A DNA stretch of 64,000 nt, taken from positions 1 through 64,000 of the IMG/VR virus record IMGVR_UViG_3300035498_000877. One strand, written 5' to 3'. This stretch comes from a virus. Lineage: Duplodnaviria; Caudoviricetes. How positions within the stretch are numbered: position 1 is the stretch's first letter; every line of letters starts with the position of its first letter. Under the pieces are notes generated by a model, which was given only the letters and a program-made list of their open reading frames with translations, made no database searches and was not told the DNA's origin. Shown piece after piece: positions 24,541 to 53,436 of this stretch. A program made the translations under genes and the position numbers.

Positions 24541-27500
24541 TTATTTTGATTCTGTATCTGATATATTATCTTCTACATTATTTTCTGGTTTTTGTTCTTC
24601 AGGTTGTTTTTGTTCTAATGGAGCATTTAAAATATCTCCTTGCTTAATCATATTTTGAATGTACAAATCAAAAGTATCTCCTAATACTTCTTGTAAAGTC
24701 ACTGCACCATTTTCATCAGTAGCTCTATAAACTTTTTTATCTGATTTATTAAATACTCTTAAATCAGTTTCTGTTGCAGCAAATATCATCATTTGATCTA
24801 AGTGTGAATTTTTAGAATTCAGTGATCTCAATTCTGCTACTGGGAAGAATGTAAGATTACCACCTAATACACATAACATAGGATTTGCCAATCTATAAAA
24901 GTATCTCATCTCTTCAGGTACAAATGGATATGTAACATGGAATATATCTTTATCAAATATACTACCAAAACTATTCTTATTGTTATAAGCTTTAGCCCAT
25001 TCAATAAATGCAATATATAACTTCTTACGTCTTACACCATTTTTATCTGATTCTTCTGCATCTCTTTGTTTAGGAAGTGATACATTATTCTGTTGGGTAG
25101 CATCTCCATCTTCCATTAAATAATCAGTAATCCAATCTAAATCATCATCCATAATATCTCCTTCATATGATTCTGTTAATCCATGATTTGATAAATAATT
25201 AGCACATTTATTGCATATATCTATTAGCCTATTATCCCTATCAATTAAATCATCAAATATTCTTTGATCTAACTCATTCTTATTTTTTTCTATTACAGGT
25301 ATAAGATAATTATTTATATCCTCGGCAGTAATTTTACTTAGTTTAGATACTGTTCTATATTGATTTATGATTTGCTGTGCAGGCATATTTTGTAATATCT
25401 TAGGAGTACCATTATTCCACTTATTGATTATTAATAAAAGATCTGCAGCTCTTTGATAATCAACATCAAAAGTCATCATTTCATCAGCAAGATCTTCAAG
25501 ATAACCATTCTTTATACCGATTGCAGTAATTTTACCGGCTGCTTTCTCACGCTTTGATTGATGTTTGTGTGCAAAATTATCATGTGCACCAATATGTTTT
25601 CCTGATGCATCAATATCATCCAATTTAAATCCACGTCCATATTTTAATCGTTCAACAGCTGCCATTTTATTTTGACTAAGATCTATATCAACATCATAAT
25701 CTTCATCTCTCATTGGATCTGATTTAAATAATTTGGTAGATTTAAATGATGGACTATCGGCAGTTTCAATATCACCAACTTTAATTTTGAAAATTGATTT
25801 TTTATCATGCTCTCTAATGTTTTCCATCTCATGAGCACCAAGCATTTTTTCACCAATTCGGCTGATATAGTTATTATATAAACCAACATATTCTACTGAC
25901 TGCAATTTTTTACCAGTTACTTCATCCTTAATTGCAAGCAATTTTTCACCATATGATTGATGGTCCATATTACCTTTTTTAGATATTGTATCTTGTACAT
26001 GTTTATTTTTAGTTTGAAGCTCATTTGGATCAATATCTTTTATTCCTTTTTGGAAGCCTCCATCCACATGACCATGACCTGGATATGTTACTTTAATATC
26101 ATTTAATGAATAAATTAATAATATCATATGTCCAGTTTTCATATCATATCCCTTACGGAAATCATACTTAAGTTTACCATGAGACATTTCATCAAATTCT
26201 ACATCTTCATTCAACATATTTGAATCATCATTATTACTATCATATGATTCAAATTGAGGCTGATATATGAAATTCTTTAGTTCATTTGTATTACCACAAA
26301 AATCCATTAGTCTATCAAAATTTATAGATGCTGGATATCTTTTTGAAGTACAGGCAAAATATAATTTACCATCTTCAAGTTTAAAAATTCCACAATTTTT
26401 GCATTGATATATAGGATTTTTAAAATTATAAATTTTTAGTTTCTTACTATTAGTGATATCATTCCAATCATGATGACAACTTTTAATTTCATTAATTCGT
26501 TTATTATACAATTCAAAAGCTTTTTTATAAATCTTAGTTGGAGCACCATTGGAAGGAGTTGAATCCATATGCCTAACTTTCTTAATTGGACCATAACCAG
26601 GAATCCATGTGTATCCCTTGGCTTTAATATCATCATTGATTCGTTCCATGTCCATATTGTATTCAATCTTACCAGTTCTTTTATCAAATCCAACATTCTG
26701 TGGACTTGTTGATTTGAATGACTGAGTTGGTTCACGTTGCCCAACAACATATTTGACTGGAGTAGTTGAACGATAGTCAATACCAACAGCAGTGACAGAG
26801 TTTACATGTTCTTTAGTATCTAATTTGATAATTTGTTTCACAGTACTCTGGCTAACAAAATCAGCTTCTCCCTCTGAACGAACAACAGCTAAACGTGGTT
26901 TCTTTGGATCATAATCCCATCCAATGCCATCACTTTCTCCATTTGGATCATGTGTTCCAGCAAACTTAATATCTTCTTGTTTTAAATCAAAAATTATCTG
27001 ATATGCATTTCCATCCTTATCATATACACAACGATAGCATCTCTTCAATGTCCCATGAGAACGCTCATCAAAATAATCGTAAGATTCTCCAAATATTTCA
27101 TTAGAAACATCTCCGGTATCTACTTTAAGTTGGTTTCTGCAAAAATTCATAAATTGCTCACATGACATACTTGCATTATAGCTAGGATGAGATAATACTG
27201 ATGTGATGATTAATGGAGATTCAAAATCATTATGCGATTCTCTAAATTTTATTTTTAAATCTTTTATTAAATCGCTTAATCGATCATATTTATGTATCCC
27301 TTTGAAATCATACCATGAATGTTCAAACCAATAATATCCATCTTCCTCTTCGTATATAATACATGTATGTGTTGGACACTGTTCACCATCATTAAGTTCA
27401 AGATACAACATAGTACTTGTATATTTATGCTCTTTAAACCATTTATTTTCTAATTCAGCTTGATCCCAGCATACTCCTACATGTGAATTCAAAAGTTGAT

Positions 27501-27738
27501 TTGGTGATTGCAAACGATAATCAATTCCAAAATTATCATCACCTTCACGCTTTTTCCCATACTTGTCAACCCAGCCATATTCTATACAATCCATCCAGTT
27601 TAATAAGTCTTGAGGAGTTTTACATGTTTCATATGACAATGAATCATCATTAGCTGATTCTCGAAATTGATCATCATATATAAATCTATTCATCCAATCA
27701 AATGCTTCATTTATAGCATTTATATTATATTGATTCAT
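24541..27738 (-). CDS. Multidomain putative head polyprotein: transglutaminase-like + 2 SHG modules + SUKH-like domain
   Basis: Likely start MNQY at 27738 (AGGAGGG RBS). GVCWDQ/THT/WFE triad; ERSHG and EMSHG modules; C-terminal VPEEMRYFYRLANP..FFP..IFAA..LGDTFDLYI is SMI1/KNR4-like. Confidence 0.6.
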   Translation of the reverse strand: MNQYNINAINEAFDWMNRFIYDDQFRESANDDSLSYETCKTPQDLLNWMDCIEYGWVDKYGKKREGDDNFGIDYRLQSPNQLLNSHVGVCWDQAELENKWFKEHKYTSTMLYLELNDGEQCPTHTCIIYEEEDGYYWFEHSWYDFKGIHKYDRLSDLIKDLKIKFRESHNDFESPLIITSVLSHPSYNASMSCEQFMNFCRNQLKVDTGDVSNEIFGESYDYFDERSHGTLKRCYRCVYDKDGNAYQIIFDLKQEDIKFAGTHDPNGESDGIGWDYDPKKPRLAVVRSEGEADFVSQSTVKQIIKLDTKEHVNSVTAVGIDYRSTTPVKYVVGQREPTQSFKSTSPQNVGFDKRTGKIEYNMDMERINDDIKAKGYTWIPGYGPIKKVRHMDSTPSNGAPTKIYKKAFELYNKRINEIKSCHHDWNDITNSKKLKIYNFKNPIYQCKNCGIFKLEDGKLYFACTSKRYPASINFDRLMDFCGNTNELKNFIYQPQFESYDSNNDDSNMLNEDVEFDEMSHGKLKYDFRKGYDMKTGHMILLIYSLNDIKVTYPGHGHVDGGFQKGIKDIDPNELQTKNKHVQDTISKKGNMDHQSYGEKLLAIKDEVTGKKLQSVEYVGLYNNYISRIGEKMLGAHEMENIREHDKKSIFKIKVGDIETADSPSFKSTKLFKSDPMRDEDYDVDIDLSQNKMAAVERLKYGRGFKLDDIDASGKHIGAHDNFAHKHQSKREKAAGKITAIGIKNGYLEDLADEMMTFDVDYQRAADLLLIINKWNNGTPKILQNMPAQQIINQYRTVSKLSKITAEDINNYLIPVIEKNKNELDQRIFDDLIDRDNRLIDICNKCANYLSNHGLTESYEGDIMDDDLDWITDYLMEDGDATQQNNVSLPKQRDAEESDKNGVRRKKLYIAFIEWAKAYNNKNSFGSIFDKDIFHVTYPFVPEEMRYFYRLANPMLCVLGGNLTFFPVAELRSLNSKNSHLDQMMIFAATETDLRVFNKSDKKVYRATDENGAVTLQEVLGDTFDLYIQNMIKQGDILNAPLEQKQPEEQKPENNVEDNISDTESK

Positions 27739-28348
27739 CCAATATATCTCCCTCCTGTGAATAGTCTTCAACATCCTCATCTAACATATTACTTTCATAT
27801 ATTTTATGAGATGCATATTCTTTAGATATTATCATTAGAATATTTAAATCTTGATCAGTCATATTATATAGATCGATCAATATCTTCTCAACCCAATCAA
27901 GTGCTCTAACACAATTTCTTATATTAGTATTGATATGATCATAGTGTTCACCATCAGTATCTTTAGAATAGAATTTAGGTCTTTTAAAGATAGATCTATC
28001 AGCCTTACCACCTACTGATGTTAAATTTCTTAATTTAGATAATTTTGCTAATAGAGGATCAAGTGACTTTTGATCTTTTGAAATTCTATTTTTCTGGGTT
28101 TTCAGTCCATTCATATCTATTCCAGATGGCTTTGCTTCAAATTTAATATCTTCTTTAAACTTCTCAATATCAGATTTAAAATCAATTACTTCTGTTGGAT
28201 CTTTTCTAATTCTATTAATTATATCATCAAGCTTATCAAGAAACTTACTAGTTACAGTAATTATTGGCTCATATGATTTATATAATAGACCAATTGTTTC
28301 ATTACTCTCCATAAATATATTAGTACTTTCTATAATATAATCGTCCAT
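27725..28348 (-). CDS. Putative head protein
   Basis: Start MDDYIIES after GGGAGG; IIES/FMES/IYES sites. Confidence 0.55.
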   Translation of the reverse strand: MDDYIIESTNIFMESNETIGLLYKSYEPIITVTSKFLDKLDDIINRIRKDPTEVIDFKSDIEKFKEDIKFEAKPSGIDMNGLKTQKNRISKDQKSLDPLLAKLSKLRNLTSVGGKADRSIFKRPKFYSKDTDGEHYDHINTNIRNCVRALDWVEKILIDLYNMTDQDLNILMIISKEYASHKIYESNMLDEDVEDYSQEGDILDESI

Positions 28349-28362
28349 TAAATAGACCTCCC

Positions 28363-29640
28363 TTAATATACAAATTTGTGGAATATCCACTCAAGAATTT
28401 TATCGATAGTTTTTAATTCACCCATTTTATCTTGTAACATTAATTTAGGTAATTGATTATTATAATCTCTAATATCTTCTATATTCTCATCATATATATC
28501 TTGTACTCTCTGATGAATTTCTTCTTTCTTGGAAATAAAATCTTCTCTATCTTTTACGGTAGTTACATAGAATGCTCTAGGCATTACTGTAATATCATCT
28601 GGTCTAACTCTAGAGTAGTCAGTATGTAAATTCTTTGGATTAGATGCAGCCATTATATATGCAACGAATGAAGAACACACAAATCTTTTATCTACTTTAG
28701 ATGGAGTAGCAATAAATGCTGTTAATAAATTAGACATTGCATACTGAGTCTTATCTTTATTCATTAATGTATCCTGAACATAATCCATCATTCTTTGTTT
28801 CTCTTCCTTAGTAACAAACATAACACAAATGTACACAGAATCTGTTCCTAAGAAAGATTCATCAGTCATCATATTATCAACAACAAATCCAATATTATCA
28901 TATGAATACATCTTAGTCATTGATTCATCGAATGATACTAATGAATGTGAATATAAATCACCATTAGTAAGTTTGGTAATCATTCCTTTGAACATCATTG
29001 ATGATATTTCAGCATGTGATTTAGGATCACCATTATTACGTAATTTAGAAGTTGAATAAGATTTCGATATTCCAAATACTGGAACAAATTCAGCATCTTC
29101 TTTATCATCTGAAGTTACAAATCCAATCTTGTCCTCATCATTATCAAACTTCCAGCTATCTTCCTCAGTTAAAGGAACATCATCACGTAAATCAATATCA
29201 GCTGATTCTAATAAGAAATTATAGATATCATTAAAATTAGATTCTATCTTATAATCAGATGATTCTTTAAATATTTTTTCAAATTGATCTTCAATTCCCA
29301 ATTCTTTGATATGTCTTTTTAAATGTGATTTAATATCATCTGATAAAACTCCTTGCTGACATGCTCTACTATATGCAGCTTTTATCCCTGGAATAGATAC
29401 TACTAATTTTCCATCTTTCAAAACATGATGGGGATATTTACATTTTGAATTGCTGTATGGAGTTTTAGTTCTTGGATTATTAGTAATATTTTTTACAGGA
29501 GCAATTAAATATGCTTCCTTTAAACAATCTTCCCAATTAGATTCTTTTAATAATTTATCATAGAAATCAGCTCCTGGTTTTTCCCACTTGCCATCAGTAA
29601 TAGCTGATTTCTTTGAATTGTCAATTTTTAATTCACTCAT
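28363..29640 (-). CDS. Putative virion protein with permuted papain-like (YiiX/NlpC-P60-type) domain
   Basis: YSHS His precedes FVCSSFVA Cys (permuted order); N-terminal KYPHH..GKLVVSIPGIKAA domain; FKES/LLES/LTEE linker. Confidence 0.65.
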   Translation of the reverse strand: MSELKIDNSKKSAITDGKWEKPGADFYDKLLKESNWEDCLKEAYLIAPVKNITNNPRTKTPYSNSKCKYPHHVLKDGKLVVSIPGIKAAYSRACQQGVLSDDIKSHLKRHIKELGIEDQFEKIFKESSDYKIESNFNDIYNFLLESADIDLRDDVPLTEEDSWKFDNDEDKIGFVTSDDKEDAEFVPVFGISKSYSTSKLRNNGDPKSHAEISSMMFKGMITKLTNGDLYSHSLVSFDESMTKMYSYDNIGFVVDNMMTDESFLGTDSVYICVMFVTKEEKQRMMDYVQDTLMNKDKTQYAMSNLLTAFIATPSKVDKRFVCSSFVAYIMAASNPKNLHTDYSRVRPDDITVMPRAFYVTTVKDREDFISKKEEIHQRVQDIYDENIEDIRDYNNQLPKLMLQDKMGELKTIDKILEWIFHKFVY

Positions 29641-29754
29641 TTTTAGATCTCCTTTCTATATATAATGTATAAAAATAAGTTTAATACAATTATTAAGCGG
29701 TGAATTTATTAATATTTTTAAAGTTATGGATATATACTATATATTAATCCTTAA

Positions 29755-30660
29755 TAATTCGAATGACAGCTTCTTTTTATTTCGGATGGTGTAACTAATC
29801 TTTCTTATTTGCGTAATGGGTTGTAATAATTTGATTTTTACAATTCATGGTAAAAACTTCTTTCACAATTGTGCTACATGGGGACTGGCTGCCATAGGGA
29901 GGGCAGTCGGTCTTTGTGTACTCAAAAATAAAAATATTAAAAAATATTTAAGTATATACATATATAATAAATTTTTGCTAGATGGAATTTTTTGATAATC
30001 AAATAAATAGGTTTGTTGGTCCTCTATTTTGATATTCAAATAAAATTTCATATATAATTGATGTTTGAAACCAAGTCATCAAATTCATCAATCACACAGA
30101 CAAGATAATGTGAGTACATGGTAACTATTCAAGTGTCAATATCAGTCACAATCGGATGGTACAGATATTTGTCATTACTGAATACCGACAAACTACCAGC
30201 TCCAACATCAAATATTAATTTATTTTGTCAAGGATTCATATGGATAGTTCTAATTCTGTCAGAGGTTTTAGAATGATAAATTTTATAATAATTTCATCTA
30301 GCGAAAATTTGTATACATCATTTTCAATGATGATCTCATTTATATTAATTTTTTTCAATTGTAGCGGGTCTATTTCAAGAGATCGCTCATAGACGTTAAA
30401 CTTTAAAGCTACTCATATATGGTAAATATCCGGGGAATGTCAATGGTAATTTTGTGGAATAATCAAATGAATAGGGAAGGTCACCCCTTTAAACATTATC
30501 GGACGAAGTGTTATGGTTATTATTTCCCCGGACTTGCCATGTAATATAAACAAACTATGACAATTTCATTATTCGTAATTCATATACTTATCTTGTTAAA
30601 AATTGTGATGATTGGTACCGGGTTCCCCTATAACCCTGTATCGGTCATTGCAATTTTTAT
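29755..30660 (+). ncRNA. Candidate large structured non-coding RNA (about 900 nt; ends approximate)
   Basis: No credible ORF. Helices 29816-26/29838-48, 29875-93/29902-20, 29969-89/30290-310, 30416-37/30524-43, 30597-624/30632-59 contain many G-U pairs in + orientation; complementary loops AUAGGG and CCCUAU. Confidence 0.7.
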
Positions 30661-30717
30661 CGCTTTTTTAAGAACGATTTGATAAATTACATTGAAACAA
30701 TGAGGTGATTATTAAAT

Positions 30718-33249: not shown

Positions 33250-33253
33250 TATA

Positions 33254-33274
33254 AGGGAGGTATTTTACCTCCCT
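33254..33274 (+). terminator. Terminator-like hairpin
   Basis: AGGGAGGTA-ttt-TACCTCCCT after the helicase stop. Confidence 0.55.
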
Positions 33275-33336
33275 AAAAATATTAATTGTTATAACTAATC
33301 TCAATAATAATTTTAAAAGGGAAGGATACTATAAAT

Positions 33337-33609
33337 ATGAATTATTCACAAATATCAAAAGAGAAATTAAATAGTTTAATTGAATCATCGGAATCTTATA
33401 TTATCACTGTATTGGATGATAGTATTAAATCAAATTTTATTAAAGGTGGATTTGATAATATTAAAGATAATATTAATATTCCTTTATATTATGCATATGA
33501 TTCTTTCTATAAAGGCAGTATTATAATTGGATTATCAGGTTCTAGGATGATATTAAATAATTTTAATTTAAATGATATTTTTGAAATAATTAAAGAGTAC
33601 TGTAATTGA
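33337..33609 (+). CDS. Hypothetical protein
   Basis: 90-aa ORF with RBS. Confidence 0.6.
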   Translation: MNYSQISKEKLNSLIESSESYIITVLDDSIKSNFIKGGFDNIKDNINIPLYYAYDSFYKGSIIIGLSGSRMILNNFNLNDIFEIIKEYCN

Positions 33610-34160
33610 TAAATTTAAGAAAGGAAGAGTGTATTTTTATGGTTAAATTTATTAAATCGAGTAAAGTATGGGATGTTATGAGTGAAGCATTGGTAACTAC
33701 TAAGGATCCAATGATATTATTTGTTTTAACATCAGCTGATGATTATGAATGTACTGAGTTAGTAAAAAATATGAGAATAAAATATGAAACTAAAAATATC
33801 AATATTTGTTATACATATTTATCAACTATCCCATCAAATGTATTTTATAAATATTTAATGGGACCAAATTATCCAGCAACATTTCTTATTAATTTTAAAG
33901 ATAGTGATAATTGCTCAGAAGATAATTTAAAGAGTGGATATCTTAATTCTGAATATATACATACTTACTTGTATTATGCAATTGATCAAATGGTTTCAAA
34001 TAAATCACTTGGATCAATATATAAAACTAATCATAAATCATTTTTCCGAAAAGAAACAATTAGTAAAATAAAATTCTTAGATCATGTAGATCTGTATAAT
34101 ATGTGGGCATTTGCAAAAATAAATATAGGAAGGAAAAAAGAAAATGGAAACAGAGAATAA
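33606..34160 (+). CDS. Hypothetical protein
   Basis: 184-aa ORF (likely start at internal MVKF) within an operon. Confidence 0.65.
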   Translation: MINLRKEECIFMVKFIKSSKVWDVMSEALVTTKDPMILFVLTSADDYECTELVKNMRIKYETKNINICYTYLSTIPSNVFYKYLMGPNYPATFLINFKDSDNCSEDNLKSGYLNSEYIHTYLYYAIDQMVSNKSLGSIYKTNHKSFFRKETISKIKFLDHVDLYNMWAFAKINIGRKKENGNRE

Positions 34161-34434
34161 ATTACCAGTTGGAATATGTAAACAAGCTGTAATGAAATTA
34201 GAATCAGCAATGGCTGACATTAATGAGATTGCAGAAGATGAAGATATTGATGAAAATCAGAAACAATTATTCTCATCTTTGGCTGAGAGTACTGGCACAA
34301 TGATTGCATGTATTGTTAATGAAGTATCTGCTGAGATGGGCGAAGAAGAATTTGTTAATGAACAAATAGACATGGATGAAATACAACCATGGCCAGAAAA
34401 TGATACTGGAGATATATTAGAAGAAGAATTATAA
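34144..34434 (+). CDS. Hypothetical acidic protein
   Basis: 96 aa, strongly acidic. Confidence 0.65.
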   Translation: METENKLPVGICKQAVMKLESAMADINEIAEDEDIDENQKQLFSSLAESTGTMIACIVNEVSAEMGEEEFVNEQIDMDEIQPWPENDTGDILEEEL

Positions 34435-34440
34435 ACAAAA

Positions 34441-34468
34441 AGAAAGGAAGGTCCATGCCTTCCTTTCT
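34441..34468. terminator. Bidirectional terminator hairpin
   Basis: AGAAAGGAAGG-tccatg-CCTTCCTTTCT between convergent genes. Confidence 0.75.
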
Positions 34469-34470
34469 CA

Positions 34471-34806
34471 TTATATCTTACCCTTAGCGGGTATAGTAAT
34501 ATCATCACCTCCTGTGAACTCTCTCAGCTCTTCTATAAGTACTAATTTTATGTTGAACTTGAAGAACTTGAAAGTATCTTCTTCAGGCATGTTGCCCATT
34601 ACAAAGAATCCTATCAATCTAGACTTCCGGTCAAAAGCCCACTCAAACCACGGTGTCTCCCAAGAATCCTCTATGATGTCATCATCGATAATGTCAATAT
34701 TTACATGGTCGAATGCATGCTCAATTCTTTCAGGACTAATACATCTTTTAATCATACACTTTATCATTCGTGTAACTTCAATTGTTGTCATTTCTACTGT
34801 TCTCAT
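34471..34806 (-). CDS. Hypothetical early-type protein
   Basis: AAGGAGG RBS; preceded by the conserved promoter motif. Confidence 0.65.
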   Translation of the reverse strand: MRTVEMTTIEVTRMIKCMIKRCISPERIEHAFDHVNIDIIDDDIIEDSWETPWFEWAFDRKSRLIGFFVMGNMPEEDTFKFFKFNIKLVLIEELREFTGGDDITIPAKGKI

Positions 34807-34862
34807 AAACACTCCTCCTTTATATGTTTTATAATAAAAATTATGAGTTACATTTCTTTTAT

Positions 34863-34904
34863 TACATTATTAAAATATATTATTAATACTGAGGAATATG
34901 CGAT
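34863..34904 (-). promoter_or_regulatory. Putative phage promoter ATCG-N20-ATATATTT-N5-ATGTA
   Basis: One of four copies with identical spacing. Confidence 0.65.
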
Positions 34905-34910
34905 TAAATA

Positions 34911-34947
34911 AAAGAAAAGAGAGGATTTTACTCCTCTCTATTCTTTT
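34911..34947 (-). terminator. Terminator hairpin
   Basis: AGAGAGGA-ttttac-TCCTCTCT with flanking A/T runs. Confidence 0.7.
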
Positions 34948-35999: not shown

Positions 36000-36000
36000 A

Positions 36001-36031: not shown

Positions 36032-36036
36032 ATTAT

Positions 36037-42240: not shown

Positions 42241-42253
42241 TTCCTTTCATTAT

Positions 42254-44011: not shown

Positions 44012-44056
44012 TTAATAATTTTATAATAAAATTTTTTAGAAAAGAGGTTATGAGAT

Positions 44057-47000
44057 ATGAAAGATATTAGTTCTTTATTTCTCACTGCGAAAGCAAGTGG
44101 ATCTCAAAAGGATGCTCTTGCATATTCTGAATGTATTCAAGACTTGTATCAGAATAAACCTAGTGAATATATCACAAAACTAGAATATATAATTCAATCT
44201 AATACTGGTTTAAATACATTCGATTCTTTCATTGAGAAATATGGTCTTCCAATATGTGCATATGATCATGTTATGCAGTGCTTTGAGAAATGTATAGATA
44301 AATGTAAGACTAATAAGAAAGATTCTTCTAAATATGAAGAAGAAAAAGAAAAACTTGAATCTTTCAAGAAGCAATATAAGAACTGCTTCTTGATGTATGA
44401 ATATTATCAGGATAAGTTAGATCCAAAATACTTCGATACTTACTATGGATTCAATGAGAATGGAATTCAGAAAAAGAAACTTATGGCTGGTATGATAAAT
44501 CAATTTGGAGAATCTGCAATTCCTGATATAATAATTACTGCTGATAAGATTGGCGATACTGCAATATATCAAACAGTTAAATATATTGAGTCATCTGATA
44601 AACTTGATGGTATTGCACATGAATTGATATCAGAATCATTTAAAGATATCAATATTAAATCAGATGCAATTACTGAGAAAGCACTTTCTCCAGTAGTAAT
44701 GAACATGATTCAGAGACATAATGCTCAGTTTACTGAAGCAATGGCTGTTCGAAATGATAATGCTGAGTATGATTATACTGAATCAGAAATAAATGCTATT
44801 CAGGATTTGATTTCATTATATGAATATCAAGTATTATGTCTTGAGGATGCTGATGAGAAACAGAAGTTGCAGAATACTATTTATTCTTTATATGAAGAGC
44901 TTGATGGTGTAATTGATGAATGTGGAAATATTATCAATTATAATGAAGGAAAGATTCTAGATAAAATCAAAGAGGTTCATAAAAAGAATAAGGAAAAACG
45001 TGGAGTAAAAAGTGAAGTATATGACCGTTTCCAGGATCTAGTAGATCATATTGCTCATATTGTAAAAGGCGAGATTAATTATGAGATAAAAGGATTTAAT
45101 AACAAAGCTAGATATTTTGATAGACTTCCAACTGATCCAAGTATAACAGTTACTGTAGGAAATGATCGTGAAGATATTTATGGTCTTAGTGCAGCAAGAA
45201 CATTAGTCGATGTTATGATGGCTGATAAATCTGAAGGAGATTTCTTTGAAAATTTATTCTTATTTATAAATATTGAATTCAAAACTAAGAGTTCATTAAC
45301 CAGAGGACAGAAAACTGATATCAGAAAAATTCTTGTTGATTCAATAAAGGAATCATGTACTCAATTAGTAAATAATAAAAAGATAGCATTGGATTTATCT
45401 CCTGAAGTTCATTCAGCAATGAATGATGATGTTAGTGGTAATAAAAGAACCACTACAAATACAACAACAAAAACTGATGCTGATGGAAATGTAGTAGATA
45501 AAAAAGTAGACATAGTAAATGAATATAAAACTACATGGACCTACAAGATATATGTCAATAAGAGCATTAAAGATGATATTGATTTTTCGGTATTTGAATC
45601 ATCTGATATAGATGAAGAAACTGCTGATTCAGTAATACCAATGTTACCAGCTAATGAGTCTGAATCATTGAGGCATGTCAATACTAGAAATAAGTTTTCT
45701 GGAGAAGCCCCGACATATTTGTCAAGTAATCACAATCTGAAATATGGTGAAGACGATTCAGATGAAGATAAAACTCTTGATGATTATAGAAGAGCATCAG
45801 CTGATGATAGACCTGAATCAGATGATGATCAAGTGGATGAACCTGATGTAGAACTTGATGATACTGATGGAGATACTGATACCGATGATAAGATTAAAAC
45901 AAATGATGATGACAATAGGGCTATTAATAATTACTATTATTATACCTATACCAATTCATTGAATAGGGTTAGCAATTCACATAATCAGGCTAATAGAGAT
46001 AATCATTCAGTTACAAGTTCTGATGATCATTCAATGAATAAAGGATCTAATAGAGATAATAATAGAAATAATAGATATGGAGAAGATACTCTAACTGAAG
46101 GATTATTTGATATATTTAATCGTACACATAATCAGGGAGATCCAGCATTTAGCAAAGCTAATGCAAATGCTCAGAATGAAATCAATCAGTTAAAATCAAA
46201 AGGTATATCTGATAAAATAATCAGAAAGCTAACTAATGATGTTCCAAATCATATTGAGATGTTAATAGATGATTGGAAAGTAGATGATGCCAATGATTAT
46301 CTCAAATTGCAATTTGATGTAGTTCCTGGAAAAGTATATGATGATTCAGGTACTAATATAGGACGTGATTTCCAGTATGTACCAATGGCAGCATATTATT
46401 TTTCTGATCAAATTTCTCCGTATGTTGGTAATATTATCTATGGTGGAAAACAATATCCTGATATTCCAGAGACAGAAGCATATATTGGCTTTGTAGAACC
46501 ACTTCAGCAATACATTAATTCATATGCTGGTGAATTAGATGATAAACCAACTGGAAATATATTAGCTGATATTAGAAAATATAATATCAAAGGTAAAAAG
46601 ATATATCTGAAATCTAATGGTCAGATTGGATTTGAACTTGATAGTGATATTGATCCTGAACATGAGATTGGTATTAACTATGATGGAAATAATCCTGAGC
46701 ATAGATGGACAGTTGGTCAAGGTGATACTGCATTTGAATCAGTTGCATTTAAAGAAGACGCTTCTGATCAAAAACCTGAATCAGATCATCCAATTAAAGA
46801 TACTGCAATGGATATTGATAGATCTCTTGGAAAAGTTCAGCAAGGAGCTAAGAGAAAAGTACAGAATGTGATCAATGCTGGTACTGCAATTACTAAACCA
46901 GTAAAACGAACATACCAATGGATTACAAAACTCGTATATGATTATAAAGATAAAGATGAAAATCGTATCAAAGAAGATATGGCCGATCCTAAGAAACGTA

Positions 47001-47353
47001 GCGGATTAATGAAAGCATTTCGTGAAGCTATAAGAATAGGAGCACTTGCTAAAGCAGGGCTTTTGCTAAATCCAGTATTTATGTATCTTAATATATCTAA
47101 TAAGATGAAAAAGAATGATAAAGAAAAAAGAATTCGAAGAGAGATTATTGGAGAATTAAGAACAGAATTAGATATCATGGATGAGAAGATCGAATATGCT
47201 AGAAGTCATGGTGATCAAAAGAATCAATATCAACTTATGCGTCTGAAGAATGAATTGCAAAAGAAACTTGTTCGTGTAAGTGGAGACGATTCTGGTGGAG
47301 TACCTAGTATGTGGAGAGCAGGAAGTCATAGACGTTTCAGTGAATTAGTCTAA
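44057..47353 (+). CDS. Large putative head polyprotein with inserted domains
   Basis: 1098 aa; many hydrophobic-X-E sites; D/N-rich linker; insert TLTE-GLFD...AFES contains IGFELDSDIDPEHEIGI (EHG-motif, DUF6985/DUF2004-like). Confidence 0.55.
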   Translation: MKDISSLFLTAKASGSQKDALAYSECIQDLYQNKPSEYITKLEYIIQSNTGLNTFDSFIEKYGLPICAYDHVMQCFEKCIDKCKTNKKDSSKYEEEKEKLESFKKQYKNCFLMYEYYQDKLDPKYFDTYYGFNENGIQKKKLMAGMINQFGESAIPDIIITADKIGDTAIYQTVKYIESSDKLDGIAHELISESFKDINIKSDAITEKALSPVVMNMIQRHNAQFTEAMAVRNDNAEYDYTESEINAIQDLISLYEYQVLCLEDADEKQKLQNTIYSLYEELDGVIDECGNIINYNEGKILDKIKEVHKKNKEKRGVKSEVYDRFQDLVDHIAHIVKGEINYEIKGFNNKARYFDRLPTDPSITVTVGNDREDIYGLSAARTLVDVMMADKSEGDFFENLFLFINIEFKTKSSLTRGQKTDIRKILVDSIKESCTQLVNNKKIALDLSPEVHSAMNDDVSGNKRTTTNTTTKTDADGNVVDKKVDIVNEYKTTWTYKIYVNKSIKDDIDFSVFESSDIDEETADSVIPMLPANESESLRHVNTRNKFSGEAPTYLSSNHNLKYGEDDSDEDKTLDDYRRASADDRPESDDDQVDEPDVELDDTDGDTDTDDKIKTNDDDNRAINNYYYYTYTNSLNRVSNSHNQANRDNHSVTSSDDHSMNKGSNRDNNRNNRYGEDTLTEGLFDIFNRTHNQGDPAFSKANANAQNEINQLKSKGISDKIIRKLTNDVPNHIEMLIDDWKVDDANDYLKLQFDVVPGKVYDDSGTNIGRDFQYVPMAAYYFSDQISPYVGNIIYGGKQYPDIPETEAYIGFVEPLQQYINSYAGELDDKPTGNILADIRKYNIKGKKIYLKSNGQIGFELDSDIDPEHEIGINYDGNNPEHRWTVGQGDTAFESVAFKEDASDQKPESDHPIKDTAMDIDRSLGKVQQGAKRKVQNVINAGTAITKPVKRTYQWITKLVYDYKDKDENRIKEDMADPKKRSGLMKAFREAIRIGALAKAGLLLNPVFMYLNISNKMKKNDKEKRIRREIIGELRTELDIMDEKIEYARSHGDQKNQYQLMRLKNELQKKLVRVSGDDSGGVPSMWRAGSHRRFSELV

Positions 47354-47390
47354 TGATTTCTAATATAATATGAAAGGAGGTGAATTAGGA

Positions 47391-47972
47391 GTGCCAACAG
47401 ATAATATATTTGAAAGATTTTTATTTGAAGCTCCAGATGATGATCCACCTGATGATGGAGGAGCTCCGCCAGATCTTGATGATACTATGGATATGGGAGA
47501 TACATCTGATGCATCTAATGATGATCCACCACCAGATATTGACGATGGAGCCGGAGGAGAAGGATTTGATACATTTGATGATCAATCTGATGATATGGGC
47601 GATCAAGGTGGAGATGATCAACCAAGTGAAGAAGATCAATTAAACAATATGAAGTTAAATGAAAAGATATCTGCGATAATGAATATGAATCTTTATCAAA
47701 GATATCTTTCACTATTGAATAATATATCAAATCAACTTACTATGATAAAGGATAATAATGACTTACTGTCATCAATCTCAAGTGAATCTTTAGATGTAGT
47801 AGAAGCACTGAATAAACTCGACGAGAATATTCATCTATATTTAAAGAATAACTTTATGAATGAGGACTATAGTAAGAATTTACTATTCTTTAATAAGTGC
47901 ATAAACTTATTAAAACTTTTGAATGATTCTTTTAATGACAAAGTACATAAAGGAATTAGATCAATAAAGTAA
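47391..47972 (+). CDS. Acidic Pro/Asp-rich protein upstream of the capsid gene (scaffold/core-like)
   Basis: GTG start after AAAGGAGGTG; FLFE-A site, DDPP repeats, helical C-terminus. Confidence 0.6.
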   Translation: MPTDNIFERFLFEAPDDDPPDDGGAPPDLDDTMDMGDTSDASNDDPPPDIDDGAGGEGFDTFDDQSDDMGDQGGDDQPSEEDQLNNMKLNEKISAIMNMNLYQRYLSLLNNISNQLTMIKDNNDLLSSISSESLDVVEALNKLDENIHLYLKNNFMNEDYSKNLLFFNKCINLLKLLNDSFNDKVHKGIRSIK

Positions 47973-48057
47973 CCATATGTTAAAAATCTACAAATCTACA
48001 ATCCAAACAAAATTGTGTTAGGTAGTAAAATATTTTAGTAAAGGAGATAATAAAGAT

Positions 48058-49914
48058 ATGAACAGACAGGGAAATGTCAGCTGGTTCTATGAATCAGCAG
48101 CTAACAATGGCAACAATGCCTATGTTGCACCAACTTCATCATTTGGTGCTTATCAGCAAGATAGCAATTTCAAGTCATTTGATGAAAAATTCAATGATCT
48201 TTGTAATGAGTATAAGGAGAGTGCTGGTATTGATATCAAGAAGGATATCACAGCAATGCTGTCAGATAAGGGATTCATGGAGGAGTATAAGCAGAGTTTG
48301 CTTGAGCCTGTATTTGAAGCTTATCTTGAGCAGTGCCCAAATGATCCTCATGCTAAGTCAGTAATTGATAATGTAGAGAGATTCTGGGATACAAAGGTTA
48401 AGTCATATACTGAGTCTGCTTCAATCACTGGTTTCCTTCCAATTGCTACATTGGAGTTCCCAGTTCTTGTTAAGCAGTTCTTCTCTTCAATTATGAAGGA
48501 TATCATTGAGGTTGAGTCTGTAAAGACACCTAATATCACAAAGCATGTTAGAACAACATACATGGTTGATAATCAGACAGGTGAAGAGTATGAATATCCT
48601 AGGTGCATGTTTGATGGTACATGGGAAAAGCTTTGGGAAGCATCTAAGGGTCATAAGATTCGTGAAGAGGTAGTTCCTCTTGATAATGGTAAGCTCTATA
48701 AGTTCCCTATTGTTGAGAAGCTTACAGATGGTGTTCCTGGAATTGATAAGCTTTCTTTCAATTTCAAGATCATTGCTATTCAGGTAGGTGGAGAAGTTGT
48801 AAATCTTCCTGGAAATGGAATCACAGTTGAGTTCTCTACAAATGGTACTCTTGTTAATGGTGATCTTAACTTCGAGCATGATGGAACTCAGATTGAGGAT
48901 ACAATTGCTGGTCAGGTTGATTTCAAGAATGGTACAGTTTCACTTGCAGCTACGAATGGTCAGGTTACAGGTGTTGTATTCCAGGGTTATCTTTCAAATG
49001 AGAAGAACCTTAGAAGTATCTCAGTTCGTGAGAAGAGAGATATTTTGAGATTCACAATTGAAGATGGTCCACGTTGGAACATGCCATTCTCTATTGAAGA
49101 GATTGAAGACGCAGCTGCTCTTCTTGATATTAATTACTACAATAGAATGGTAGATGAGATTACTCGTACACAGGAAATGCAGGAGTGCATGACTGTTATC
49201 AAGTTCTTGAATGATGAGTTTGCTAAGTTCAATGGTGTTAAGACTGATACATATAAGCTTGAGTCTCTTGCTAATACATATACAGTTGATATCAAGGCAC
49301 CGGATTACTTCGCAGGTGATCCATTTGATTACATTTCAAAAGCTATTCAGTTTAGAATGAAAGCTATTATTCATCAGATTGAAGAGACAACAAAGTTGGA
49401 TGATCTCTCATTTGTTGTATCTGGTAACCCAATGGCTTGCCAGTTAATAGCTCCATTCACAAGCTGGAAGATTTCTCAGGGTACATCAATTGGTGGTATC
49501 TCTGTAAATGGATCATATGGATTTGCTACAGATATGGGAGCAAATGTTCGTGTAGTTGCATCTAACCTTTATGATGCATATACAGTTGATCCTACAGATG
49601 AGACAGGTAAGCGTGAGCTTGTTCTTAACATCTATGCTTATCCTACATCACCTGATAGAATTACATTCCGTCATCTTAAGTATACATCACACTTGATGAC
49701 ATCTCAGAACCAGACGGCATATCAGTCAACACAGGCTCCTGGTGGTGCATATAACATTGTAACTGCTACATCAAGATTTAAGGATATGAGCATTCAGGGT
49801 ATTCAGGCTAGACTTGTTATCCTTAACTCTGATAAGGTTTATGGTTTAGCTCCAGAGATTCCTCCTATTGTTGGATCTCCATGGCTTGAGCCTACAGCAG
49901 CTGCACAGCCTTAA
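48058..49914 (+). CDS. Putative major capsid protein precursor
   Basis: 618 aa; codon usage typical of very high expression (AAG/GAG/CAG/TTC); N-terminal propeptide with FYES and YTES sites; strong downstream terminator; head-gene context. Confidence 0.65.
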   Translation: MNRQGNVSWFYESAANNGNNAYVAPTSSFGAYQQDSNFKSFDEKFNDLCNEYKESAGIDIKKDITAMLSDKGFMEEYKQSLLEPVFEAYLEQCPNDPHAKSVIDNVERFWDTKVKSYTESASITGFLPIATLEFPVLVKQFFSSIMKDIIEVESVKTPNITKHVRTTYMVDNQTGEEYEYPRCMFDGTWEKLWEASKGHKIREEVVPLDNGKLYKFPIVEKLTDGVPGIDKLSFNFKIIAIQVGGEVVNLPGNGITVEFSTNGTLVNGDLNFEHDGTQIEDTIAGQVDFKNGTVSLAATNGQVTGVVFQGYLSNEKNLRSISVREKRDILRFTIEDGPRWNMPFSIEEIEDAAALLDINYYNRMVDEITRTQEMQECMTVIKFLNDEFAKFNGVKTDTYKLESLANTYTVDIKAPDYFAGDPFDYISKAIQFRMKAIIHQIEETTKLDDLSFVVSGNPMACQLIAPFTSWKISQGTSIGGISVNGSYGFATDMGANVRVVASNLYDAYTVDPTDETGKRELVLNIYAYPTSPDRITFRHLKYTSHLMTSQNQTAYQSTQAPGGAYNIVTATSRFKDMSIQGIQARLVILNSDKVYGLAPEIPPIVGSPWLEPTAAAQP

Positions 49915-49984
49915 TTAGCTTTTTAATAATTCCAATCATCCTCCATTGGATATTATTATGCCTATACGATTCGGAAACTTGCCG

Positions 49985-50020
49985 TAGTGTAAGAGGGTGC
50001 TTCGGTACCCTCTTACATTA
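49985..50020 (+). terminator. Strong terminator with cUUCGg tetraloop
   Basis: TAGTGTAAGAGGGTGC-TTCG-GTACCCTCTTACATTA, then GCTTTT. Confidence 0.85.
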
Positions 50021-50088
50021 GCTTTTGCCTAATTACTATTTTATAATTAGTAAAAAATCTTAGATTATAATAAAGGAGGAAACTCGAT

Positions 50089-53000
50089 ATGGCTAAATCA
50101 AAAGGATTAGTTAAAGATGTATTTATGACTGATCTTCCAGAAGATATTCAATATATAATTACTGATGTCAATAAGATGATATCAAATATAATTGATAATA
50201 CATTGAATAATAAAAAAGCATATGATGATTTGAAGAGTTCTAGTTGGGCTATGAGTTGCTTAAAAGATTTCAAAACAGCTCCTTCTGCTAAAGGAGATGT
50301 TGGATCTGCTAGAATATATAAAAGAGGAAATAAATATGATACTATGATACAGGTTACTGGTCATTTCAGAAACCATCAGTATGGATGGATTGAAGAATTA
50401 CTTCATGATTTTGTACGAGATGTTCATCAGTCTGTAAAGACAGAAGTACGTAAACGTCATAAGCTGACAATTAAAGATGAAGGTACTGGTGGAGATAGTA
50501 ATGAAGGATTTGATTTGTATCTAAGTAATAAACAGTCAAAAGAGTTATGGGATAAATTTGAAGATAGAAAAGCTAAATTTATTTCTGAATCATTTGATCT
50601 TATTGATAGTGATGATGAGGATGATGACATTACTAATTTTAATGAGAAGTCACATGGTAAACTAAAGTTTGATTATCGTAAAGGATATGATGTAGATACT
50701 GGTCATAAGATAATGATTGTGTATTCACTTGATAATATCAATATTACATTTCCTGGTCATGCACATGGGTTAGACTATAGTGATGTTAAAGATAAACTAG
50801 ATGATCCTGAAATTCAGAAGTTAAATAGAGAAGCTGAACAGAATATTGCTAAGAAAGGAAATCTTGATCATCAATCATATGGTCAGAAGATATTGGCTAT
50901 CAAAGATTTAGTTACTAATAAAACTCTTAAGAGTTGTAGATATGTAGGATTATTTGATCCTGATCACAAACATCCTGAAGCAATGAAGTTAACTGATGAG
51001 CAGATTAAATATGCTCAATCACATTTCCATATCTTTTCTATTAAAGTGGGAGATGTTGAGACAGAAGATCAGAAGAATTTCAAATCTTCTAAAGCATATA
51101 AGATGAATATTGTTGGTAATGATAATCTGAATGAACCTAAGATTACAATTGGTGAGAAACATCTTAAATCAGGTAGAGGTGCTAAGTTGGATGATATTGA
51201 CCCAACCAAGAAACCAATAACATACAATCATCCATCTGCAAAGGATCTTAAAAAGAATCCTGATCACTACACAAAAGAAGATGTAGATCTTATATTAGAT
51301 GCAATTAATTCTCAAGCTTTCAATAATGAAGAATTTGATGAAAAATCACATGGAAAGTTGAAATATTCATTCAGAATGTCAGTGAATTACAAAAATGGTC
51401 ATTTTATAAAAATTGTATTTGATTTGAAACCAGAAGATATATCACAAGTAGGTACTTTTGATGATCAAGACTATAAAAATTTTAATTCATTTTTAAAAGA
51501 TAAAGAAATAATTAAAAATATAAATAAAAATGGATCAACTAATTTTTCTGGTACTGGAACTGTAATGGGAATTGTTGATATGGATACACATGAGAATTTA
51601 AAAACTGTATCGACTATAGGAATACTTGGCGGATCTCAAACCACATTTGAAAAATATCTACCAAAATCAAAATATTATGACAGAAGCAAAAATAATTTTG
51701 GTGAATATTTAAGAGCTGATAGAGAGAAAATTGCTGCTGAGCTTAATTTAAATCCACCAGATGCAATCACATATACAGTTGGTGAGAAATGTAAAGTTCC
51801 TGTTTATAGATCAACATTGGCATCAAATACTATAAATGCTGTATTCAATAATGAACATTCTCCATATGGCAAAGGAGTTAAAGGTGGCTCTTATCCTAAA
51901 TCTAGCGTTATAAAAAGCAATAATTGGCATGGAAGAAATAGCGATATATCTGTTAATACTGCTATTAAACAATTAGAGAAAGAATTTGATAACGTTAAAG
52001 CAATTGCTACTAAATATCCTGATTTACAAGGAGATGTGGATAAAGTTGAAAAAGATTTTGATTATGTAAAAAAGGAAATATCTAAAAATGTTGATGAAAA
52101 ATATGGACAATCAATATCAAATCCAACATATAAATATTATCATTACTATTTAAAGAACGACATAGATAATTTAAAATTATCTATAAATCATAAAAAAGGA
52201 ATATGGGAATCAATAGATATAAATTTATATGAAAAAGATAATATTGATTTTGAAGAATCTGCTGATAATTCACCAGCTGTTCATAATCAGGGTAAGAGAA
52301 TGTTAGCTGCTCTATCCAAGGAATATATTGGAGAGAATGCTAAAAAGATTAACCAGTATGGTGCTAATACATTTGCTAATATCATTACCAAGAATCTATT
52401 ACCATCATGGGGTGGAGCTTTTAGAAAGTTATCTATACAAATAGATACTAAATCAAATGGTATTGTTGAGTTTAAGATTCCTACAATGTCAATTGATTTC
52501 ATCTCTAGATATATTAATGGTAGAGAACCACTGGAAGCATTTCTTCACAGAGTACCCGAAATTAAAATACGTATGTCAGCTGATGTATTCAATACAATGA
52601 AAGACCCTAATGATGCTTATAACTTTTTCTTAGCAGCTGTTAAGTATTATGATATTAAAGTAAATAAATATGCTAATAAATTAATGGCTGAAGCAATGAG
52701 AATGGATACAGCTATGAAGCATCTTATATCAACTACTAAACTCAGTGGATTAGTATCATATTCATTACAGTTATTATTTATATTTGATAAAGTGGATATG
52801 AGTAATAATAAGACATTTGAAATAGATAAATCTGATATTGATACTGTAAATAAGTTCTTTAGGAATATCTATACATCTTATGCTGACCCTGAGAAAGAAA
52901 AGAATAAGGTACTTAAAGATCTCAAAGATATGGTTAGTTCATTGACTGAATCATGTGAATGGGATGATAATATTAAAACCATATCATATCTTCCAGAAGA

Positions 53001-53436
53001 AGTTGGTAAATTGTTTGATGGAAAGTATAATGAAATGATAAAACATTATACTGATTTATGGTACAATGAACAAATCGACTGGCAAGATATGAGAACTACT
53101 GAAGGACAGTTAAAATACATTAGAGAAAAATTTGGTGTTAAGAAATTGAAAAAGATTCCTAAGGATATAGTTGCATATATTCAAATTGAAACTGAAGCAA
53201 TTGAAACATCAAATGATAAAATGATGATTGCTTCTTATTGTTTATCTAAATTGGAGATTGTTGAATGGTATATCGAATTGATAGATACAGATAATAAGAA
53301 GTATATAGTTCCACATACACGTGCATATCTTGTTGATGTTAGAACTCAATTACTGAAATGCTACAAAGAAATTATGGATACTAAGATTGATAAGAATGCT
53401 GGTAAAATAAAAGTAAGTGATGAGTATTATATTTAA
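50089..53436 (+). CDS. Large putative head polyprotein with 2 SHG modules
   Basis: FNE-KSHGKLKFDYR and FDE-KSHGKLKYSFR modules homologous to those in 24541..27738; flanked by ISES and IWES/FEES sites. Confidence 0.6.
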   Translation: MAKSKGLVKDVFMTDLPEDIQYIITDVNKMISNIIDNTLNNKKAYDDLKSSSWAMSCLKDFKTAPSAKGDVGSARIYKRGNKYDTMIQVTGHFRNHQYGWIEELLHDFVRDVHQSVKTEVRKRHKLTIKDEGTGGDSNEGFDLYLSNKQSKELWDKFEDRKAKFISESFDLIDSDDEDDDITNFNEKSHGKLKFDYRKGYDVDTGHKIMIVYSLDNINITFPGHAHGLDYSDVKDKLDDPEIQKLNREAEQNIAKKGNLDHQSYGQKILAIKDLVTNKTLKSCRYVGLFDPDHKHPEAMKLTDEQIKYAQSHFHIFSIKVGDVETEDQKNFKSSKAYKMNIVGNDNLNEPKITIGEKHLKSGRGAKLDDIDPTKKPITYNHPSAKDLKKNPDHYTKEDVDLILDAINSQAFNNEEFDEKSHGKLKYSFRMSVNYKNGHFIKIVFDLKPEDISQVGTFDDQDYKNFNSFLKDKEIIKNINKNGSTNFSGTGTVMGIVDMDTHENLKTVSTIGILGGSQTTFEKYLPKSKYYDRSKNNFGEYLRADREKIAAELNLNPPDAITYTVGEKCKVPVYRSTLASNTINAVFNNEHSPYGKGVKGGSYPKSSVIKSNNWHGRNSDISVNTAIKQLEKEFDNVKAIATKYPDLQGDVDKVEKDFDYVKKEISKNVDEKYGQSISNPTYKYYHYYLKNDIDNLKLSINHKKGIWESIDINLYEKDNIDFEESADNSPAVHNQGKRMLAALSKEYIGENAKKINQYGANTFANIITKNLLPSWGGAFRKLSIQIDTKSNGIVEFKIPTMSIDFISRYINGREPLEAFLHRVPEIKIRMSADVFNTMKDPNDAYNFFLAAVKYYDIKVNKYANKLMAEAMRMDTAMKHLISTTKLSGLVSYSLQLLFIFDKVDMSNNKTFEIDKSDIDTVNKFFRNIYTSYADPEKEKNKVLKDLKDMVSSLTESCEWDDNIKTISYLPEEVGKLFDGKYNEMIKHYTDLWYNEQIDWQDMRTTEGQLKYIREKFGVKKLKKIPKDIVAYIQIETEAIETSNDKMMIASYCLSKLEIVEWYIELIDTDNKKYIVPHTRAYLVDVRTQLLKCYKEIMDTKIDKNAGKIKVSDEYYI

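Follow-up and report, generated by a model that had tools for sequence, protein, structure and literature searches.

Introduction

Prohead proteases of the T4 and phiKZ type cleave behind glutamate and thereby release internal head proteins for later ejection (PMC9026906, PMC10052503, PMC5694885). The internal proteins of T4 are cut after a Glu that follows a short motif, for example LIE-9 (PMC9026906), while in SPN3US the capsid protein is cut at ATE-130 (PMC5694885) and the protease gp245 trims itself (PMC10052503). Phages are also known to carry multi-effector 'polyvalent' proteins in the capsid, and Iyer et al. 2017 proposed that these are released by embedded metallopeptidases (MPTases) (PMC5512222). 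Among the papers of the searched library that held at least four of five search terms, none joined polyvalent proteins with prohead-protease processing. Here we describe the window, a stretch of 64,000 nucleotides at the start of one viral contig of 289,234 bp (G000; IMG/VR record IMGVR_UViG_3300035498_000877; G+C content about 29%). For five of its large genes, named by their positions as g947, g24541, g28363, g44057 and g50089, an earlier interpretation (here called the sequence-only reading) had proposed a modular loading system, in which effector domains fused into head proteins are bracketed by prohead-protease-like sites, released during maturation and injected into the host. We favour, with moderate confidence, the interpretation that the five gene products are polyvalent virion proteins, most likely internal head proteins, which are cut by the prohead protease. 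The core of the sites is written Phi-x-E, corresponding to [FYILV]-x-E with Phi as a hydrophobic residue; the four-residue form used earlier was [FYILV]-x-E-[SAGDKE], and an arrow (↓) marks a predicted cut.

The locus resembles the T4 system of internal proteins IPI-III and Alt in its gp21-family protease, in putative cuts after Glu with a hydrophobic residue at P3, and in sites of the same type in the capsid and scaffold-like proteins (PMC9026906). Short leaders which end at a site and precede SHG modules, a domain described below, are reminiscent of the 10-aa capsid-targeting sequence of T4 (PMC9026906), and by analogy the cargo enzymes would travel inside the head until their ejection. In contrast to T4, the cargo is located inside long multi-module polyproteins between N- and C-terminal frames, with internal connectors and many predicted cuts per chain; these proteins have no sequence similarity to the T4 internal proteins or Alt. 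With phiKZ, 201phi2-1 and SPN3US (proteases gp175/gp245), the window phage shares the status of a jumbo phage, the same broad lineage, a putative long propeptide of the capsid protein whose candidate site is close to residue 120-130, candidate C-terminal self-trimming sites in the protease and variable paralogous head-protein families (PMC10052503, PMC5694885). It differs from them in the putative P3 residue, which is hydrophobic as in T4 and not S/A/G or A, in the SHG module, which is unrelated by sequence and without fold match, and in its cargo, whose enzyme and immunity domains can be recognised. PF12699, the phiKZ internal-head family, was not matched by any of the five large genes at E ≤ 0.01; their only Pfam matches were SUKH models and a sub-threshold RNaseH_C hit.

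As described for polyvalent proteins (PMC5512222), several effector-type domains are combined per polypeptide in variable architectures next to virion genes, and GNAT, NUDIX and zincin domains recur. The g24541 product contains a transglutaminase-like module, two SHG modules and a SUKH-like domain, that of g28363 a leader and a permuted papain, and their orthologs swap domains; the scaffold-like and capsid genes lie between g44057 and g50089, and g947 is followed by a gene (2358-4067) matching a PHROG virion structural protein. Zincin-like MPTases are frequent, not obligatory, in polyvalent proteins; a HExxH module is absent from the window proteins and present in orthologs from the relatives G001, G002, L004 and L006. 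A difference from the described polyvalent proteins is that the pattern found here favours the prohead protease, with portable cassettes of connector plus site, over an embedded MPTase. The block gp114-gp117 of the phages AR9 and PBS1 (virion protein, acidic scaffold-like protein, capsid protein and zincin) shows equal gene order and an aligned capsid site, with gp114 resembling the C frame of g44057 and gp115 resembling g47370. The zincin stands alone in AR9 and is embedded cargo in L004 and L006, and the small single-domain proteins of AR9 contrast with the proteins of 590-1270 aa with extra modules found in the window clade. What appears to be new here is the putative T4-like hydrophobic P3 in an AR9-like phage, the placement of cargo between frames rather than behind an N-terminal tag, the portable connectors, and three undescribed sequence families, namely the SHG module, the CKYPHH leader and the L1/L2 connectors.

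Conserved frames with exchangeable cargo

The window derives from an uncultured jumbo phage related to AR9 and phiKZ, with an AR9-like capsid protein. A megablast search of the locus against cultured phages yielded no DNA-level match; from the window to the tail sheath, the gene order parallels AR9 gp114-gp125. Orthologs were taken from six IMG/VR loci with capsid proteins 69-74% identical to that of the window phage, and for genome-wide comparison three related genomes were taken whole and 138 ortholog groups were aligned. The interval 24541-53436, in which the system had been placed, also holds unrelated replication genes. All twelve sites given as examples in the sequence-only reading were found at the named genes (12/12).

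The proteins encoded on both sides of the capsid gene consist of conserved frames with variable contents. Orthologs of g50089 range from 592 to 1115 aa, of which an N frame of ~170 aa and a C frame of ~390 aa are conserved, while the middle contains nothing, ~100 aa, one SHG module or two. Both frame edges carry a site: the N frame ends with [IMFY]-x-E↓[SA] in 6/6 orthologs, and the C frame starts after [MFI]-x-E↓[ASK] in 6/6. For the g44057 family (674 to 1270 aa), the alignment of six orthologs revealed junctions with Phi-x-E in 6/6, Phi-x-E↓G in 5/6 and Phi-x-E↓[ASK]-VGDADD in 6/6 members. Its cargo slot is empty or filled by a zincin (HEHGH/HEYGH) or by the module specific to the window phage, and in the orthologs of L006 and L007 an SHG module is inserted elsewhere. 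The background of fully conserved Phi-x-E sites is only ~6 per 1000 aa, compared to frame-edge sites conserved in 5/6 or 6/6 members of these two families and in 3/3 of the g947 family. Neither the g44057 nor the g50089 frames had a match in Pfam, PHROGs (no head family) or NCBIfam, and an ESM Atlas search with the g50089 C frame gave no usable hit.

The linker of g44057 (window 45605-46096, residues 517-680) is otherwise acidic and of low complexity, yet odd motifs in it are strongly conserved in 6/6 orthologs, namely NTRNKxTGxxPxYIxxNHDLxYGEDD, LDDYRRPSA and an Asn/Tyr run, NNYYYYTYxNSLNKN..NSFN. In L003 (42-2673), the g44057 ortholog is broken into open reading frames (ORFs) of 681 and 191 aa just ahead of the conserved C frame.

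Variation of cargo was likewise observed in the remaining families. The frame of g947 ends at a site in 3/3 members (NYFKE↓S in the G001 ortholog, SYLIE↓S followed by a short tail in that of G002), and only the window phage has the appended SMI1 domain, whose earlier assignment was confirmed by PF09346 (67.3 bits vs a cut-off of 25.4, residues 330-442). Homologs of g28363 have nothing, a transglutaminase, a GNAT domain, a P-loop kinase or two SHG modules (G002) between leader and papain. In orthologs of g24541 the C-terminal domain is kept at 65-77% identity and the rest is swapped, with zincin, HAD, GNAT, SHG and two further repeated domains as contents. One 937-aa protein of G001 unites the g28363 leader, a zincin, a transglutaminase-like module and the g24541 C-terminal domain; the architecture in G005 is leader, HAD, GNAT, transglutaminase and g24541-type C domain, and in G003 two GNAT domains, SHG and g24541-type C domain. 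A homolog of g27725 is fused in G002 to the N-terminus of a g24541-type protein (BLASTP 42% identity, residues 1-185 of 1485 aa). The genes g28363, g27725 and g24541 are pieces of one shuffled system. The cargo swaps among orthologs show that the domain architecture is far from invariant, and the expectation that inserts vary exactly between E-sites held for the families of g50089, g44057, g947 and g28363.

Domain assignments of the sequence-only reading stood to different extents. A permuted papain in g28363 is supported by the top three VIA fold matches of its C domain, which are YiiX (2if6, Z 6.0, rmsd 3.9, 123 aligned residues), the Bacillus cereus cysteine peptidase 3kw0 (Z 5.6) and the type VI effector TseH (6v98, Z 5.2), with the next match at 3.8. 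The motifs YSH232S and FVC322SS, both kept in the family consensus, place His ahead of Cys as in a permuted fold; on the other side, there was no Pfam hit and a Z of ~6 is middling. The Foldseek top hit of this domain was PPPDE1 (E 0.24). In the AlphaFold2 (AF2) model of g28363, the per-residue confidence (pLDDT) is >92 for residues 1-120 and <50 for residues 153-176, the stretch containing PLTE↓E, whereas blocks in 181-390 are mostly at 75-97 with dips at 221-230, 301-320 and 331-350. The transglutaminase-like assignment is weak in the window protein itself (g24541 residues 54-155, DUF553, 16.8 bits vs a cut-off of 20.5, E 0.0049) and clear in homologs (PF01841 or PF04473). The SUKH-like C-terminus of g24541 is only a lead: its language-model neighbours were all SMI1/KNR4 at 0.91, with no Pfam hit, and hhalign against the g947 SMI1 domain gave a non-significant probability of 7%. 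Sequence searches of the PDB with g50089, g24541 and the SUKH-like profile returned nothing usable.

The CKYPHH leader of g28363 matched nothing in the Pfam library used, PHROGs or NCBIfam. It is also present in ~80 proteins of ~550 aa, with an acidic coiled coil behind it; in locus L062 the gene for such a protein (L062:6001-7719) is located between the portal and the probable capsid gene, the usual slot of protease or scaffold. These ~550-aa proteins, which come from phages of 60-100 kb and carry the precomputed labels PF27290 and phrog_3313 'unknown function', are probably a scaffold or protease-scaffold family without annotation.

The location of g44057 and g50089 is conserved as well, since both belong, as do the scaffold-like and capsid genes, to one co-oriented block, the order of which is kept in six relatives and AR9. 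Ahead of the scaffold-like and capsid genes, g44057 and AR9 gp114 hold equal positions, and the g44057 C frame matches this AR9 virion protein weakly (BLASTP E 9e-4; hhalign E 9.5e-4, probability 22%). From this synteny, the gp114 match and the CKYPHH domain common to proteins in the protease/scaffold slot, we infer a location in the head. The same three observations, together with the resemblance of stand-alone SHG leaders to capsid-targeting sequences, make it improbable that the proteins are unpackaged, cytoplasmic multidomain anti-defence or takeover proteins which are merely encoded near structural genes and whose sites are linker features without processing role. Such an explanation would agree with GNAT, NUDIX and SUKH domains acting from the cytoplasm in other systems too, and with frames that matched no PHROG head family.

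The prohead protease and sites in core head proteins

The genome encodes a prohead protease of the T4 gp21 kind, which matched the head maturation protease family phrog_3014 (E 9.8e-27), PF03420 (24.5 bits, slightly below its cut-off of 27) and, in a phmmer search, AR9 gp113 (1.9e-8). A conserved V[IL]xE↓x is situated ~31 residues from its C-terminus, as expected if the enzyme trims itself like SPN3US gp245. The capsid protein is 24-26% identical to those of the Bacillus phages AR9 and PBS1 and of Staphylococcus jumbo phages. The motif occurs, as claimed earlier, in its candidate propeptide (FYES, YTES); both sites are conserved in 6/6 orthologs, and SYTE119↓S aligns with ILQE↓S of AR9 and ILME↓S of PDB 7x30. 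The N-terminal Phi-x-E↓A of the scaffold-like g47370 is also conserved in 6/6 orthologs; AR9 gp115, which corresponds to it in position and composition, has FLKE↓D.

Two genes upstream of the protease gene (G000 228848-231889), encoding a possible portal of 643 aa and a 364-aa protein, carry a position-conserved Phi-x-E↓[AS] near the N-terminus. In the 364-aa protein, Y-[TM]-E↓A at about residue 27 is found in 3/4 orthologs and a mid-protein I-x-E↓[GS] in 4/4. The g50089 product was considered as a portal and rejected; the 643-aa gene two upstream of the protease gene is the better candidate by position.

The SHG module and the connectors

The SHG modules named in the sequence-only reading are real, with four copies of two subtypes (A and B) in the genome. 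A profile search of 1.84 billion cluster representatives identified 132 SHG proteins, most of them 800-1900 aa long with one to four copies each; the proteins looked up were metagenomic without informative name in 10/10 cases. The SHG sequence matched nothing in Pfam, PHROGs or NCBIfam, and a scan of IMG/VR for the pattern of the SHG alignment returned one locus only. Its AF2 model has a confident core (pLDDT ~90) and less confident first ten residues; fold searches with it gave a best E of 0.41 (Foldseek, PDB), a best Z of 2.6 (VIA) and, in BFVD, no more than a weak similarity (E 0.014, TM 0.27) to MORN-repeat proteins. SHG is a new family, which matches no solved fold. No copy is present in the complete relative G001, whereas G000 and G002 have four each, so that SHG is accessory cargo and no structural necessity. 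Among 43 homologs of SHG proteins, GNAT, NUDIX or transglutaminase domains each occur in 6-7.

For the start of the module, 144 copies were compared, drawn from 131 representatives of clusters at 50% identity. Glu occupies P1 in 143/144 and a hydrophobic residue P3 in 144/144 copies (F70, L26, I23, Y14, M8), while P2 is free (D, T, E, N, Y, S, L and others). The Glu is followed by K/A/R, Ser (141), His (125), Gly (115), any residue, Leu (139) and Lys (122 of the 144). T4 gp21 has the specificity L/I-x-E, and the combination of hydrophobic P3, free P2 and Glu at P1 fits this specificity. Where SHG is the first domain, an acidic and hydrophobic leader of mostly 13-47 aa (one of 6 aa) precedes it and ends at this Glu. 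An N-terminus X-Ser-His would formally be of the ATCUN metal-binding type; any tie to the function of SHG is pure speculation.

Ser and His directly past the junction would also suit self-cleavage of SHG by a Ser-His N-to-O acyl shift at its own N-terminus, as in domains of the SEA, GPS or Nup98 type, for which the prohead protease is not needed. This chemistry requires neither the invariant Glu two residues upstream nor a hydrophobic P3, junctions lacking SHG carry the same Phi-x-E, and no fold similarity to known autoproteolytic domains was found. One L003 ortholog has lost Glu, Ser and Gly of the signature together and has kept His alone (QPMTHD), which agrees with self-cleavage; all in all, we consider self-cleavage very improbable.

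Two short connectors recur among 255 collected proteins, L1 (ENFxxIxxxIxE-xTGINLF) with 29 and L2 (IxE[SA]hDWIxxFVxDxxFRE-[SN]) with 22 instances, and neither matched a Pfam model in the library used. The site QFRE-S, listed earlier ahead of the transglutaminase, is the end of an L2 element. In linkers of the g28363 family, 94 Phi-x-E were counted in 1330 aa compared to 58.6 ± 5.9 in composition-preserving shuffles, with the mirror motif at 58. SHG cores revealed the opposite, a depletion of Phi-x-E (149 vs 200.6 ± 12.2 expected, mirror motif 247), which would fit avoidance of internal cuts.

Motif frequencies and alternative processing

The four-residue motif occurs 59 times in the five genes, corresponding to 14.2 per 1000 aa compared to 8.6 in the other genes, with the limit that the motif had been defined on these same genes. 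Several results weigh against processing by the prohead protease. The core Phi-x-E is common everywhere in the proteome and is found at 24.0 per 1000 aa in the five genes vs 22.7 in the others, so that for the bare motif the outcome is formally the one which the sequence-only reading had named as speaking against it. The density of ortholog-conserved Phi-x-E is equal in the five genes and the rest (5.9 vs 6.1 per 1000 aa, 138 ortholog groups), and an automated insertion-boundary test was marginal (39/85 hits vs 29 expected). Folded window modules other than SHG show no site avoidance (57 vs 44.8 expected), and the counts from SHG copies and linkers are not independent because the sequences are related. 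YLME↓D and the start of the SUKH-like domain of g24541 are not conserved as Phi-x-E, and the invariant E-x-SHG could belong to the module's own function. A tblastn search with g44057, the g50089 C frame and SHG against 50,697 cultured-phage records found nothing, leaving the weakly matching AR9 gp114 as the only homolog verified in virions by mass spectrometry. Finally, the zincins of the relatives and the two cysteine-peptidase folds of the window could do the processing instead.

The loose motif by itself carries no signal, and the position-specific evidence is good: most individual sites are conserved in position at module junctions across orthologs. The claim that domains are bracketed by protease-like sites is partly upheld, in this positional sense, with the exceptions of the non-diagnostic bare motif, of YLME↓D and of the start of the SUKH-like domain.

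The main rival explanation is that these polyvalent proteins are processed, if at all, by their own embedded peptidases, as documented for autoprocessing MPTase polyvalent proteins (PMC5512222); Phi-x-E would then be part of acidic amphipathic linker helices and E-x-SHG part of a fold or active site. We regard this as unlikely. The proteins of the window phage lack a zincin and have kept the junction sites, and three proteins without embedded peptidase (capsid protein, scaffold-like protein and protease) have a conserved Phi-x-E↓[SA]. A free P2 between fixed P3 and P1 at the SHG start, and a linker Phi-x-E content 1.6-fold above composition expectation with the mirror motif at expectation, also speak against this rival. 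The HExxH zincins inside orthologs of G001, G002, L004 and L006, the two cysteine-peptidase folds of the window and the missing overall enrichment of Phi-x-E agree with this rival.

Proposed mechanism

Modular architecture, positional conservation of sites and the presence of the protease were observed directly. Of the proposed modular loading system, the modular swaps, the position-conserved sites and the encoded gp21-type protease were confirmed, and enrichment of the bare motif was not. Packaging, cleavage, ejection and effector roles would, in the favoured interpretation of processing by the prohead protease, proceed as follows. The conserved frames are the CKYPHH leader, the SUKH-like C-terminal domain and, in the products of the two genes on either side of the capsid gene, the N and C domains. 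Their interchangeable cargo comprises a transglutaminase-like cysteine peptidase fold, a YiiX-type permuted papain, SMI1/SUKH and SHG, in relatives also zincin, GNAT, NUDIX, HAD and P-loop kinase. The modules are linked via acidic linkers or the short recurrent helical connectors L1/L2, both with Phi-x-E sites. Frames and leaders would carry the polyproteins into the prohead core, where the T4 gp21-type serine protease would cut after Glu at the junctions; the capsid protein (after E119) and the scaffold-like protein may be cut by it likewise. Once released, the modules would remain in the head, exit with the DNA and act on the host.

One can extend this, tentatively and as a possible but doubtful scenario, to a portable 'load-and-cut' grammar of a large clade of uncultured jumbo phages, in which L1/L2 cassettes and targeting-like leaders slot any domain into head frames, the protease releases it and a strain-specific cocktail is injected; SHG would then be a dedicated internal-head or ejection protein whose function depends on the new N-terminus exposed by cleavage. 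Provided that the cuts are real, frame, connector and Phi-x-E provide a readable rule for the proteins a giant phage brings into the cell, and comparative genomics suggests that this rule is used to swap peptidases, acetyltransferases, NUDIX hydrolases and immunity-type SUKH domains between close relatives. For uncultured jumbo phages of gut or rumen, the 'first-minute' arsenal brought in by injection would become predictable from sequence, the T4 capsid-targeting idea would be widened from short N-terminal tags to internal cassettes, and parts for protein delivery via engineered phages might be obtained. All three undescribed sequence families (SHG, CKYPHH and L1/L2) merit curation.

Table 1. 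Coordinates of the described features (window positions unless G000 is given; ↓, predicted cut).
Feature	Position (nt)	Strand	Residues	Remarks
g947	947-2293	+		frame ~309 aa ending NFFHE309↓S (nt 1859-1876)
g947 SMI1/KNR4 (SUKH) domain	1925-2278		327-444	appended after frame
g24541	24541-27780	-		probable start Met15, nt 27738
g24541 leader (L2 connector)	27658-27714		27 aa	ends QFRE41↓S
g24541 transglutaminase-like module	27076-27639		48-235	
g24541 SHG-B	26221-27072			after YFDE239↓R
g24541 SHG-A	25441-26196			after EFDE531↓M
g24541 C-terminal SUKH-like domain	24601-25068		905-1060	conserved
g27725	27725-28390	-		221-aa ORF between g28363 and g24541
g28363	28363-29640	-		leader, connector/linker, permuted papain
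g28363 CKYPHH N-leader	29281-29640		1-120	
g28363 helical connector (L1 element) and disordered linker	29089-29280			FKE126↓S, LLE145↓S, PLTE159↓E
g28363 permuted papain, YiiX-like	28456-29088		185-395	His232 ahead of Cys322
g44057	44057-47353	+		frame protein upstream of scaffold-like gene
g44057 N frame			1-288	
g44057 insert			289-516	window-specific; end SVFE515↓S
g44057 Asn/Tyr-rich linker			517-680	conserved; end TLTE681↓G
g44057 cargo module			681-896	window-specific; 'EHG-motif domain' of the sequence-only reading; end AFE895↓S
g44057 C frame			897-1098	hydrophobic segment and coiled coil
g47370, scaffold-like	47370-47972	+		acidic N half, helical C half; FLFE20↓AP (nt 47418-47435)
Major capsid protein	48058-49914	+		phrog_20655, E 2e-28
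Capsid candidate propeptide sites	48082-48099; 48403-48420			WFYE13↓SA; SYTE119↓SAS
g50089	50089-53436	+		frame protein downstream of capsid gene
g50089 N frame			1-166	end FISE167↓S, then acidic linker
g50089 SHG-A	50638-51318			after NFNE186↓K
g50089 SHG-B	51334-52233			after EFDE418↓K
g50089 C frame	52255-53433			after DFEE722↓S
Prohead protease, T4 gp21/phiKZ gp175 kind (Peptidase S77)	G000 231895-232755			outside the window

Other features of the locus

The large terminase gene of the window phage is split (56434-60147) into an N part at 56434-57279 and a C part at 58795-60147. An HNH endonuclease ORF (57329-58384) lies between the halves, and a group I intron core was detected at 58382-58720 (Rfam RF00028, 55.8 bits, above the gathering score). 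The relatives L004 and L005 have an uninterrupted terminase of 717-718 aa, and the AR9 terminase is annotated as a join of five pieces.

A gene matching a PHROG 'tail protein' (21359-22645) has further copies at G000 67970, 107775, 168014, 281702 and 287934; these six paralogs are 45-68% identical and dispersed over the genome. Three small tandem paralogs are located at 22672-24329. An 843-aa ORF at 30718-33249 matches terminase-like and helicase PHROGs alike. Only ORFs of 427-488 aa match it in L004/L002 and L021, and the L021 ORF covers its residues 1-118 and 397-842. The 843-aa ORF therefore looks like a fused gene or one that bears an insert in the window phage.

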